64,000 nucleotides of DNA from a bacterium (GTDB lineage: Bacteria; Patescibacteriota; Patescibacteriia; UBA1558; S5-K13). The notes below the pieces were generated by a model, which worked only from the letters and a program-made list of their open reading frames with translations, ran no database searches and was not told the DNA's origin. A program made the translations under genes and the position numbers. The DNA is taken from positions 32,001-96,000 of the forward strand of contig JAKPTO010000026.1 in the NCBI GenBank assembly GCA_029555085.1, in the 5' to 3' direction. Shown here one piece after another: positions 59,646 to 59,876 of this stretch. The stretch's first letter is position 1, and every line of letters starts with the position of its first letter.

Positions 59646-59835
59646 TTTTAAAAATCGTCCTCAGGATATATAATAAAAATACTATATATTAATAAATCTA
59701 ATGAAGACCCCCGTCCACAAACTGGTTACAACCGTTTCCATTTTAATTAATTCGATATTAACGAATATAAAAAATTAAAACTAAAACGATTATTAATATC
59801 TCCTAAAATAGGAGTTTTGAGGATGATTTTTAAAA
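59646..59835 (-). ncRNA. putative structured RT-associated non-coding RNA / leader
   Basis: 18-bp terminal inverted repeat (17/18) at 59646-59663/59818-59835 enclosing several hairpins; starts just after the promoter and ends 2 nt before the RT ATG. Confidence 0.6.
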
Positions 59836-59846
59836 GTACATAATAT

Positions 59847-59876
59847 ATTATAGCATGTCAATAAAGCGTATGTAAA
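59847..59876 (-). promoter_or_regulatory. sigma70 promoter for the ncRNA-RT operon
   Basis: TTTACA (59871-59876), 18-nt spacer, extended -10 TGcTATAAT (TATAAT at 59847-59852). Confidence 0.65.

Follow-up and report, generated by a model that had tools for sequence, protein, structure and literature searches.

[quoted passage not shown]

What is the sequence, bounded by an inverted repeat, that lies against the start codon of a reverse transcriptase (RT) gene in a patescibacterial genome, and what might the enzyme do with it? The locus lies in a 64,000-nucleotide stretch of DNA, here called the window. A first, sequence-only reading had taken the element for the template and primer RNA of a retron-like system. 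All the elements named there do occur at the positions given, and our analysis upholds most of the structure but finds no support for retron membership. A conserved RNA and an RT with membrane-protein partners point to a previously undescribed RNA-plus-RT system.

Bacterial RTs that use noncoding RNAs (retrons, DRT2, DRT9, DRT10 and UG27) have each revealed a new way to make DNA, and to our knowledge all those of known mechanism belong to the retron or UG lineages. Patescibacteria have genomes of about 1 Mb, and we know of few defence or retroelement systems in them. RTs that resemble those of group II introns are described, in the available text of PMC8632793, as having lost their RNA partner. 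The family presented here would be a group-II-type RT with a compact pseudoknotted RNA of its own and two membrane proteins, and may bear on the domestication of intron-derived RTs.

A covarying, pseudoknotted RNA on the RT strand

The RNA, about 190 nt long, lies directly 5' of the RT gene and on its strand (Table 1). The 18-nt inverted repeat that first drew attention to it, complementary at 17/18 positions, lies within a longer one, in which 59643-59663 pairs with 59818-59838 over 21 nt at 90% complementarity. As had been observed, the 3' arm of this closing stem, P1, stops two bases from the RT ATG.

Table 1. Coordinates of the RNA, its parts and the genes of the operon in the window.
Feature	Position	Strand	Remarks
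Structured ncRNA	59646..59835	-	P1-closed multi-helix junction: P1, J1/2, P2, pseudoknot strand, three-part P3, variable P4, conserved J4/5, P5; model R1 118.4 bits, E 6e-24
P1 5' arm	59818..59835	-	partner 59646-59663; from inverted-repeat search and homologue covariation
P1 3' arm	59646..59663	-	terminus 2 nt from RT ATG (59643-59641)
P2 hairpin	59800..59814	-	preceded by J1/2; invariant A at 59815
Pseudoknot 5' strand, AUAUUAA	59793..59799	-	partner P3c loop 59755-59761; covarying
P3 stem, three parts	59731..59790	-	P3a 59784-59790/59731-59737; P3b ~59773-59780/59741-59748; P3c 59762-59765/59751-59754
P3c loop, 7 nt	59755..59761	-	pseudoknot 3' strand
Variable segment (P4 region)	59700..59730	-	G+C-rich in the window; noticed earlier as a GC-rich segment
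J4/5	59690..59699	-	most conserved single-stranded stretch; U59700, A59697, U59694, A59693 nearly invariant (31-34/34 sequences)
P5 hairpin	59666..59689	-	AU-rich in the window; G-U at 59682/59673
Predicted sigma-70-like promoter	59847..59876	-	-35 TTTACA 59876-59871, 18-nt spacer, TG-extended -10 TATAAT 59852-59847; 11/12 matches
RT, 405 aa, group-II-intron-like	58426..59643	-	catalytic motif (V/I)GDD
ABC-exporter-like membrane protein, 571 aa	56736..58451	-	degenerate nucleotide-binding domain; ORF overlaps RT stop
Tandem Nuc/NucT/Zucchini-type PLD, 404 aa	55556..56770	-	N-terminal hydrophobic anchor; second HKD motif is HxH

Folding this strand and modelling covariation in the regions upstream of RT homologues had been suggested as checks, and both bear the structure out. 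The 206-nt RNA folds at -54.4 kcal/mol, far beyond 200 dinucleotide shuffles (-32.4 +/- 4.0 kcal/mol; z -5.54), none of which folds as well. The covariation analysis gave a conserved structure that is tied to the RT gene and its strand. In an alignment of 34 homologues fitted to a covariance model, 94.5% of the cells of the consensus structure are paired, against 74.1% after shuffling and 38-49% when the partners are slid; compensatory (double) changes occur in 44 of 50 pairs, and none of 500 shuffles reaches any of the five measures used. P1 has changed on both sides in 11 of its 12 modelled pairs while 97.3% of its cells stay paired, and P5 carries double changes in 10 of 11. The consensus derived from the homologues recovered the P2 hairpin, the nested arm (59731-59790) and the AU hairpin with its G-U pair, all of which had been noticed in the window.

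One pairing of the sequence-only reading gave way to another. The 10-nt pairing 59686-59695/59790-59799 is indeed 100% complementary in the window, but it is not conserved, with 75.1% of cells paired against 72.6% in shuffles and double changes at 3 of its 10 pairs. Its 5' strand pairs instead with the P3c loop to form a pseudoknot. The covariance model does not contain this pseudoknot (59793-59799/59755-59761), in which 95.2% of cells are paired and 6 of 7 pairs show double changes; in one example, AUAUUA/UAAUAU is exchanged for AUGCCG/CGGCAU.

A more distant RT subgroup (37-41% RT identity) provides a check that is independent of the model-fitted alignment. Its RNAs are 270-300 nt long. Fourteen of them, aligned with MAFFT and folded with RNAalifold, show this architecture again, with compensatory changes at 47 of 56 pairs, a P1 of 25 bp, the same pseudoknot covariation and a CUCNUUG...AUAAA stretch that resembles J4/5. 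The strand is indicated by the many G-U and U-G cells that appear when the RT strand is read (single pairs have, for instance, GU 19 and UG 16) and by model R1, whose matches on the opposite strand score 16-35 bits, whereas the window and the Falkowbacteria-like seed set reach 118-165 bits. A structured, covarying RNA family with a pseudoknot, encoded on the RT strand, therefore exists. Region 58000-60500 matched none of 4227 Rfam families at E<=10 under permissive filters, apart from a chance match to SNORD91.

The extended -10 promoter that had been proposed at the 5' arm fared less clearly. The consensus match is present, and the predicted transcription start, a few bases before the P1 5' arm, fits the 5' end of the RNA. 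The promoter is not significant on its own, because the region holds 5 promoter-like sites where 7.2 are expected in shuffles. In 13 of the 38 rows the model start is preceded, at a distance of 1-27 nt, by the end of a perfect TATAAT, a count made without a chance control in AT-rich DNA, and conservation of the promoter across homologues is only suggestive.

Among the sequences searched, the RNA was found only with one operon, in which the RT gene is followed by genes for an ABC-exporter-like protein and a PLD protein. The 5'-core model R2 gave 55 matches in 50 of 66 sources (692 kb, both strands searched), all of them on the RT strand, upstream of the RT and with the RT-ABC-PLD operon (55/55), and the full-length model R1 matches upstream of the RT in most loci. 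The window's genome (1.02 Mb) has a single copy. Of the 16 sources that lack an R2 match, two (L052, L059) have just 115 and 56 nt of upstream sequence, and another two (L031, L040) are matched by R1 at E 2e-4 and 9e-6. The gap between model end and RT ATG is -1 to 6 nt in 29 of 38 rows, the window counted. A hand-written descriptor (P1, P2, pseudoknot and P3c) called 27 of 62 upstream regions; we discarded the count because the descriptor was too rigid, missing sequences that align well to the covariance models, and one call or more (L014) looks spurious.

The arrangement varies in several loci. Two tandem copies occur in five of them (L008, L013, L029, L036 and L064), with the core kept and the variable segments different, and the first copy in L008 follows a tRNA-Tyr gene at a distance of 18 nt. 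L002 has its RNA 2 kb before the RT, with two pilin-like genes standing between them. A hairpin and a U-tract separate the RNA from the RT ATG in L043, L045, L046, L047 and L049, and also in L035 and L053.

The segment between P3 and J4/5 is the variable part of the RNA. It is 17-68 nt long in the 34 homologues, and in 25 of them its G+C content exceeds that of the remaining RNA; in the window, 59703-59734 had stood out as GC-rich and does so on measurement (56% G+C versus 24% for 59646-59835). A hairpin with z<-2 occurs in 13 of the 34 segments, and three are reduced to 17-18 nt without a hairpin. This variability is compatible with a variable template cassette and is not evidence for one.

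The reverse transcriptase and its partner genes

The start of the 405-aa RT is backed by residues M1, I5, N10, A14 and Y15, which are conserved in homologues. D146, D231 and D232 are invariant in 24 RT sequences, and the enzyme looks catalytically active. Its closest RT classes are group II RT and then RT-Cas1. A sequence profile search of the PDB gave 103-113 bits for group II RTs (113 for GsI-IIC RT), 47 for DRT2 and 24-31 for retron RTs; chain 9ioa, of 499 aa and named just 'RNA-dependent DNA polymerase', scored 52. Among PADLOC models, the generic RT model scored 132 bits, UG26 107, UG17 86 (RT domain only), UG27 61, Drt9 56 and the retron RTs 21-23, and UG2 gave no match. An ESM Atlas model of the RT, with a TM of 0.84 over residues 1-396, predicts a full group-II-RT-like fold, and over these residues it aligns to a cluster of which 92% of members carry GIIM.

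The protein may nevertheless differ from a typical group II intron RT/maturase. TIGR04416 scores 125 bits, far under its equivalog cut-off of 300, Pfam finds no GIIM or HNH domain, and motif C reads (V/I)GDD. Domains I-VI of a group II intron ribozyme were not found around the ORF, where no Rfam intron family matches and the next ORF overlaps the RT stop. G2L RTs are defined, in the available text of PMC8632793, by the absence of intron RNA structure. The RT appears to fall within this definition, as it is nearest to group II intron and CRISPR-associated RTs and lacks that structure, a placement made by scores and predicted fold. Unlike the G2L RTs, the family has a conserved structured RNA of its own. 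Existing lists of RT groups (PMC9226505; the Toro et al. 2019 dataset cited in PMC8632793) might already include it as G2L or unclassified.

The order RT-ABC-PLD is kept, and each partner occurs in 61 of the 65 loci. The ABC-like protein has no model in PADLOC, where the PLD protein gets weak DrmC-type matches only. The RT and the ABC-like protein each occur in 1 of 401 sampled genomes of the phylum, namely the window's own, and the flanking genes vary between loci. The operon is thus a rare accessory module in variable genome regions. Its neighbours are mostly surface, secretion and housekeeping genes rather than known defence genes; in some loci the RNA is immediately preceded by pilin-like genes and by very large ones without annotation. 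Two or three modules can share one genome (L006/L030; L056/L057/L058). The module is almost confined to Patescibacteria. IMG/VR yielded one relative (L066, 42% identity, at a contig end), and phage records gave no close match, the best being below 30% identity over at most 74% of the protein.

The RNA as a probable partner of the RT

We put at roughly 60% the probability that the RT has in this RNA a dedicated partner, which serves it as scaffold, as template or in both ways. In the window, as in most homologues, P1 also lies right against the RT start codon. The RNA would form one part of a four-part module, whose other members are the group-II-intron-like RT, the ABC-exporter-like membrane protein, with its degenerate ATPase, and the Nuc-type PLD, which is anchored in the membrane. 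The RNA would be transcribed from its own predicted promoter and would fold into the P1-closed junction. The RT may bind the conserved core (P2, the pseudoknot, P3 and J4/5) and copy part of the RNA into cDNA. The likeliest template would be J4/5 with the adjoining variable P4 cassette, by analogy with retron and UG27 RTs, which copy variable hairpins that lie between conserved motifs. In such a scheme the effectors of a defence-type or abortive-infection-type response would be the two membrane proteins.

Group II intron RTs bind domain IVa over the start of their own reading frame. Here P1 stops 2 nt short of the RT start codon, and either folding of the RNA or binding by the RT would therefore also hold down RT translation.

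Several observations sit less easily with parts of this scheme. The segments of 17-18 nt without a hairpin (3/34) and the shortness and A/U-richness of J4/5 speak against this cassette as the template. A defence role is not favoured by the neighbouring genes, and PADLOC support for it is absent (ABC) or weak (PLD). Inspection by eye for the A-B-A' template pattern of DRT10 shows short AUU/UAAU repeats in the A/U-rich J4/5 stretch, and we claim no pattern there.

The RNA could instead act only in cis, as a riboswitch-like or RT-autoregulatory leader that governs transcription read-through into the RT-ABC-PLD operon, or its translation, and of which no DNA copy is ever made. We regard this as unlikely. 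The position of the P1 3' arm, 0-6 nt from the RT ATG in most loci, and the terminator-like hairpins before the ATG in L043, L045, L046, L047, L049, L035 and L053 are also expected of such a leader. A pseudoknotted multi-helix junction, invariant junction nucleotides and tandem copies are riboswitch traits too, and inspection of the window sequence found no SD-like sequence at the usual spacing from the ATG. Against a leader alone, the RNA is confined, among the sequences searched, to one operon, and the first gene of that operon encodes an RT. Studied bacterial RTs with conserved upstream RNAs use them as template or scaffold, according to the available text of PMC12632851 and 10.64898/2026.09.22.753630. 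The tandem copies with their differing variable segments, the separation of RNA and RT by two genes in L002, and the terminator-like hairpins that stand before the RT ATG suggest that the RNA is more than a leader.

A bolder form of the partner reading is quite improbable. The RNA would be a minimised descendant of group II intron RNA and the obligatory partner of a domesticated group-II-type RT, which would copy J4/5 and the variable P4 cassette into DNA that acts at the membrane; this DNA would be handed to, or would gate, the ABC-exporter-like protein, or would be processed by the PLD protein. If this were true, the module would be a missing link between self-splicing retroelements and machines in which an RT works from an RNA template, DRT10 and telomerase among them. 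It would also be the first RT system in ultra-small symbiotic bacteria to have its output tied to a membrane complex of transporter-like kind.

It is a shade less probable again that the module is a present or recent mobile retroelement derived from a group II intron, with the RNA as a reduced intron remnant (the RT binding site) that serves copying into new sites and with the PLD protein as the nicking enzyme. Such an element would account for an RT whose sequence and predicted fold are nearest to those of group II intron RTs, for an RNA immediately 5' of the ORF, in the place that intron domains I-IVa would occupy, for flanks that differ among loci, for the first copy beside tRNA-Tyr in L008, and for genomes with multiple modules. 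However, neither an Rfam group II intron family at E<=10 nor a GIIM or HNH domain was matched, domain V/VI cannot follow the RT because the ABC-like ORF overlaps its stop, the window's genome holds a single copy, and membrane proteins such as the PLD and the ABC-like protein would be odd cargo.

A retron, to which the first reading likened this locus, is highly improbable. P1 would be the a1/a2 pair, the 5' half the msr and the variable hairpin the msd, with msDNA primed from a 2'-OH beside P1. The likeness is real, since retrons too have terminal inverted repeats that close an RNA directly 5' of the RT, a conserved portion with a variable hairpin after it, and the combination of RNA, RT and effector (PMC7736814, available text); covarying terminal repeats of the a1/a2 type are present here as P1, and JGI labels some homologues 'retron-type reverse transcriptase'. 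The enzyme argues otherwise. Retron models score 21-23 bits in PADLOC against 132 for generic RT and 107 for UG26, and retron RTs in the PDB 24-31 bits against 103-113 for group II. Retron RTs are defined by a VTG triplet in RT7 and by NAXXH between the RT2 and RT3 motifs (PMC7736814, available text). Here RT7 reads F.FLGY, and 65 sequences show no conserved N...H from RT2 to RT3. The absence of a branching G after the 5' arm had been remarked upon from the start; the invariant nucleotide there is an A (59815, in the A-A-C of J1/2, 34/34 sequences), and the nucleotides that follow the P1 5' arm are A-rich. No retron type with ABC-exporter or PLD partners appears in the accessible portions of PMC7736814 or PMC13712802.

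Finally, the RNA has almost no chance of being the template repeat and spacer RNA of a diversity-generating retroelement (DGR): DGRs are common in Patescibacteria, their RTs are near group II RTs, and pilin-like and very large genes precede the RNA in some loci, but a blastn-short search with 59640-59880 found no diverged second copy in the 1.02-Mb genome (just 12-18-nt AT-rich chance matches), the RNA is conserved in sequence and structure across loci, unlike a template repeat, and RT motif 4 reads QGVPLIA without the SQ signature that DGR RTs carry.

Relation to RNA-using RT systems

The RNA-using system DRT10 (UG17, formerly G2L3; ncRNA, SLATT and RT) shares several features with the family. 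In the available text of PMC12632851 and PMC8632793, it has a stand-alone RT of about 400 aa and a conserved multi-stem ncRNA upstream in the operon, and PMC12632851 further describes a membrane-protein partner and a stable stem-loop followed by a short single-stranded loop, the template site in DRT10. [quoted passage not shown] Here the partners are an ABC-exporter-like protein and a PLD protein with no SLATT, the RNA (about 190-300 nt, with a long P1 closure and a pseudoknot) precedes the RT rather than a membrane gene, and the RT scores higher with group II intron RTs. The UG17 model also lies below UG26 and generic RT (86 bits against 107 and 132), so the locus does not belong to DRT10. 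Nor does it belong to DRT9/UG28 or DRT2/UG2, given 56 bits for the Drt9 model, no match to UG2 and 47 bits for DRT2 in the PDB.

The UG27 systems offer a parallel to the variable segment, as they copy variable hairpins flanked by conserved motifs in ncRNA arrays (10.64898/2026.09.22.753630, available text). Repeated conserved RNA units with a variable hairpin between conserved motifs, and two accessory proteins, are features in common (10.64898/2026.09.22.753630; PMC9226505; both in part), as are the five loci here with two tandem units and the 61 bits of the RT on the PADLOC UG27 model. As far as these sources describe them, UG27 systems are prophage-borne and encode two proteins without known domains, whereas here one locus comes from IMG/VR, the partners are membrane proteins and a single unit is the rule. 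Our literature search, in which subscription journals were thinly covered, found no description of an RT with ABC-exporter-like and PLD partners, nor of an RT-linked RNA in Patescibacteria or Falkowbacteria.

Together, the 405-aa RT and the 190-nt RNA would make a small ribonucleoprotein with clear covariation constraints, which suits heterologous expression. Sequencing libraries add minor observations. One RNA library matched the window in a single 151-nt contig (58539-58689, depth 2, one run, share 0.08) that lies inside the RT ORF; it is not proof of transcription and is uninformative on the ncRNA. One run shows a joint from 58744 to 59960 with sides of 22 nt from another contig, and we took it as a chance match. 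The stretch itself is present at share 1.00 in 19 DNA runs, all as contigs, and these runs may be its source.

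The conserved RNA upstream of the RT gene

The ncRNA (window 59646-59835, minus strand) lies between recG (59911-61974, plus strand, divergent) and the 405-aa RT ORF (58426-59643). A sequence-only reading of this DNA had proposed a long-range closing stem here, and the inverted repeat was borne out, with 21 nt at 90% complementarity (59643-59663 / 59818-59838). Folding of the 206-nt RNA 59640-59845, suggested in the same reading, gave -54.4 kcal/mol, beyond chance when compared with -32.4 +/- 4.0 kcal/mol for 200 dinucleotide shuffles, none of which did as well (z -5.54). The 3′ arm of the closing helix P1 does end two bases before the RT ATG, as had been noted, and the choice of start codon is backed by the conserved first fifteen residues of the homologues. 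A TG-extended sigma-70-like promoter (11/12 matches) ends at 59847 on the minus strand and predicts a transcription start a few bases 5′ of the P1 5′ arm. The extended -10 box claimed earlier is present, but promoter-like sites in the scan were no more numerous than in shuffles, so it is a consensus match only.

The same elements are plainly present upstream of RT homologues, and their consensus anatomy maps onto the window in a way that confirms the hairpins and nested arm of the sequence-only reading. Its 10-bp pairing 59686-59695/59790-59799 is complementary in the window and is not kept in relatives (75.1% of cells paired versus 72.6% in shuffles; double changes in 3/10 pairs). What it called a GC-rich segment is the variable part of the RNA family, 17-68 nt long. 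This segment is higher in G+C than the remaining RNA in 25 of 34 sequences and folds into a clear hairpin (z<-2) in 13; in three it is only 17-18 nt and has no hairpin.

Elements of the ncRNA in window coordinates (P, helices; J, joining strands)
Element	Position	Strand	Remark
P1	59818-59835 / 59646-59663	minus	
J1/2	59815	minus	invariant A
P2	59800-59814	minus	
Pseudoknot	59793-59799 / 59755-59761	minus	
P3a	59784-59790 / 59731-59737	minus	
P3b	about 59773-59780 / 59741-59748	minus	
P3c	59762-59765 / 59751-59754	minus	
Variable segment (P4)	about 59700-59730	minus	
J4/5	U59700, A59697, U59694, A59693	minus	nearly invariant
P5	59666-59689	minus	

A covariation model built from regions upstream of RT homologues, a check proposed earlier, recovered a conserved and covarying RNA. 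The covariance model R1 (14 Falkowbacteria-like sequences; 184 positions, 43 pairs) matched upstream of the RT on the RT strand with up to 165 bits (118 in the window), compared with 16-35 bits on the opposite strand at the same places. When the 34 best R1 matches (E<1e-5) were aligned, with the pseudoknot added by hand, standard pairs formed in 94.5% of cells. The controls gave 74.1% with the 3′ letters shuffled and 38-49% with partners slid by 1-3 columns. Both sides had changed in 44/50 pairs, and 0/500 shuffles matched any of five covariation measures. Fitting this alignment to R1 biases it towards the nested helices. The pseudoknot, which could not be included in R1, was paired in 95.2% of cells, with 6/7 pairs compensatory. 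Its AUAUUA/UAAUAU becomes AUGCCG/CGGCAU in Magasanikbacteria-like loci.

An independent check used plain MAFFT and RNAalifold on 14 upstream regions from a distant RT subgroup (37-41% identity to the window RT). The same plan emerged, with a 25-bp closing stem, P2, a three-part P3 and P5; 47/56 predicted pairs were compensatory, and the loop-to-strand complementarity of the pseudoknot was visible there too. With a shorter model of the 5′ core (R2, 94 positions), both strands of 692 kb were searched at E<=0.1. The 55 matches came from 50 of 66 sources, and every one lay on the RT strand, 5′ of the RT. The 16 sources lacking an R2 match are L031-L033, L040, L041, L044, L052, L053 and L055-L062; the upstream sequence is short in L052 (115 nt) and L059 (56 nt), and R1 matched L031 and L040 (E 2e-4 and 9e-6). 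The window's own 1.02-Mb genome holds one copy of the ncRNA. These results establish a conserved pseudoknotted RNA encoded on the RT strand. It has no Rfam match at E<=10 and is rated a new RNA family.

Leader or discrete RNA

The main rival explanation is that the ncRNA is a riboswitch-like leader, which could also have P1 placed as it is against the RT start codon. Several loci show signs of more than a leader. Five (L008, L013, L029, L036, L064) carry two tandem ncRNA copies. Those of L008 (4520-4703 and 4823-4999, before the RT) score about 154 bits each; their variable segments are different, and compensatory changes distinguish their P1 helices. In L002, 2 kb of sequence with two pilin-like genes separates the ncRNA from the RT downstream. 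A G+C-rich hairpin with a U-tract, which would end a discrete small RNA, stands between ncRNA and RT ATG in L043, L045, L046, L047 and L049, and also in L035 and L053; an eighth match of this search, in L001, is the P5 hairpin itself. A riboswitch-like leader could also show tandem copies, a spaced RNA and such hairpins.

The reverse transcriptase and its membrane-protein partners

Profile comparison of the RT with PDB sequences placed group II intron RTs first (GsI-IIC 113 bits, others 103), followed by Cas6-RT-Cas1 (97), LtrA (60), a 499-aa RNA-dependent DNA polymerase (52), DRT2 (47), G2L4 (37) and retron RTs (24-31). The NCBIfam group II RT/maturase equivalog scored 125 bits, far under its cut-off of 300. 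PADLOC matches, all spanning the RT domain only, were to its generic RT model (132 bits), UG26 (107), RT-Cas1 (101), UG17 (86) and UG27 (61). Residues 1-396 of the ESM Atlas model (pTM 0.81) aligned to a cluster of group II RT/maturase proteins with TM 0.84. The three catalytic aspartates are invariant, and in every one of the 65 family members motif C reads (V/I)GDD, where YxDD is usual. From these profile and fold matches the RT is placed as group-II-like (G2L-type), a placement by type with no clade assigned, and it is apparently active.

Among known RT systems, DRT10 was rejected because the locus has no SLATT partner and carries ABC-like and PLD proteins instead. The retron-like reading proposed from the sequence is unlikely, as the signature motifs of retron RTs and the branching G of the RNA are absent. 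A DGR is dismissed since no variable repeat exists in the window genome.

Two ORFs overlapping each other's ends follow 3′ of the RT on its strand. The first (56736-58451, minus; 571 aa) has weak ABC_membrane and ABC_tran matches and groups in profile searches with type I ABC exporters such as PCAT1, TM287/288 and MsbA; its ESM Atlas model agrees at TM 0.72-0.80 over almost the full length. No PADLOC model matched it. Its most conserved residues are in the membrane part, and its nucleotide-binding domain is degenerate. ATP hydrolysis is doubtful, because Walker B reads D-N, not D-E, and no LSGGQ-like signature is conserved. The second (55556-56770, minus; 404 aa) has two PLD domains of the Nuc/NucT/Zucchini nuclease clade, the first motif canonical HxK...D and the second HxH...D, and a hydrophobic N-terminal anchor. 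Both proteins appear to be membrane-bound.

We infer a model in which the RT would bind the conserved core of the ncRNA and copy part of it, with the two membrane proteins as effectors. The best template candidate would be the conserved J4/5 with the adjoining variable segment cassette, by comparison with studied RT-RNA systems. The DRT10 RT copies a loop immediately 3′ to a stable stem (PMC12632851), and the copied part of UG27 is a variable hairpin bracketed by conserved motifs (10.64898/2026.09.22.753630). Folding of P1, or RT binding, over the start region may also limit RT translation. A defence role is the weakest link, since the genes nearby mostly serve surface, secretion, sigma-factor and housekeeping functions and are not known defence genes.

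A literature search of partial coverage, confined to main texts, turned up no account of a module made of RT, ABC-like protein and PLD, nor of an RNA linked to an RT in these bacteria. We rate the module as an RT with a dedicated ncRNA. This type is itself known; here a new RNA family and new partners are combined with an RT on the group-II-like side of the tree.

Distribution and genomic setting

The protein collection held 188 RT homologues at E<=1e-3. Among the 120 listed, nearly all are about 400 aa, and the named ones are labelled Patescibacteria, Falkowbacteria or Magasanikbacteria. A scan of one genome per species gave 64 loci, 65 with the window, across which the order RT, ABC-like, PLD is kept and flanking genes vary. 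The ABC-like cluster is present in 61/65 (absent from L015, L026, L055, L062), as is the PLD cluster (absent from L015, L028, L044, L055), a contig edge cutting L028, L044 and L055. The RNA travels with the RT and the two membrane proteins. The RT (E<=1e-40) and the ABC-like protein (E<=1e-15) were both absent from an even sample of 400 other phylum genomes, one of them of the same family. IMG/VR yielded only one relative, and no close relative was found in phage records. The module is rare and accessory, and sits in variable regions.

In the window it occupies the rubrerythrin-recG interval (54909-61974). A same-family relative that lacks the module (L071, G321:C2:122500-134400) has four surface or cell-wall proteins encoded in this interval of about 9 kb, their domains being of the PG-binding, Ig-like, beta-helix and GLUG types. 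The interval appears to be a variable site of the genome. Also next to recG is a RadA/Sms-like gene (62010-63347; a KaiC-type ATPase with Lon_C), so the module adjoins two recombination/repair genes; neither has conserved linkage to the module in other loci. In L008 (4417-5001) 18 nt separate the end of a tRNA-Tyr gene from the first ncRNA copy, and sites beside tRNA genes are common integration spots.

In several genomes the whole module is present two or three times, in diverged form: L006/L030 (on one contig), L012/L042, L036/L050, L005/L063 and L056/L057/L058. Their copies are 46-60% versus 37-41% identical to the window RT, which suggests paralogous systems, not recent duplication.

Immediately 5′ of the ncRNA, L002 (1794-5000), L006 (3744-4817) and L007 (2790-3809) encode proteins of 300-357 aa, which in L002 also occur between ncRNA and RT on the same strand. 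Their cluster has members in 7/65 loci, and its L006 representative has an N-terminal prepilin-type methylation motif. The distant RT subgroup (L036-L064; e.g., L046 76-4716, L064 9842-10513) has a ~1500-aa protein with no Pfam domain upstream, and downstream a ~197-aa protein without known family, together with one or two cupredoxin-like proteins of ~210 aa. All of them may be further components of the module.

An identical 31,362-nt contig over window 58000-60300 occurs in three sequencing runs labelled activated sludge (2016), wastewater (2020) and anaerobic digester (2023) (X1, X9, X17). The same stretch is found at share 1.00 in 19 runs from 16 studies, some labelled soil; the window organism, or this assembly, recurs widely.
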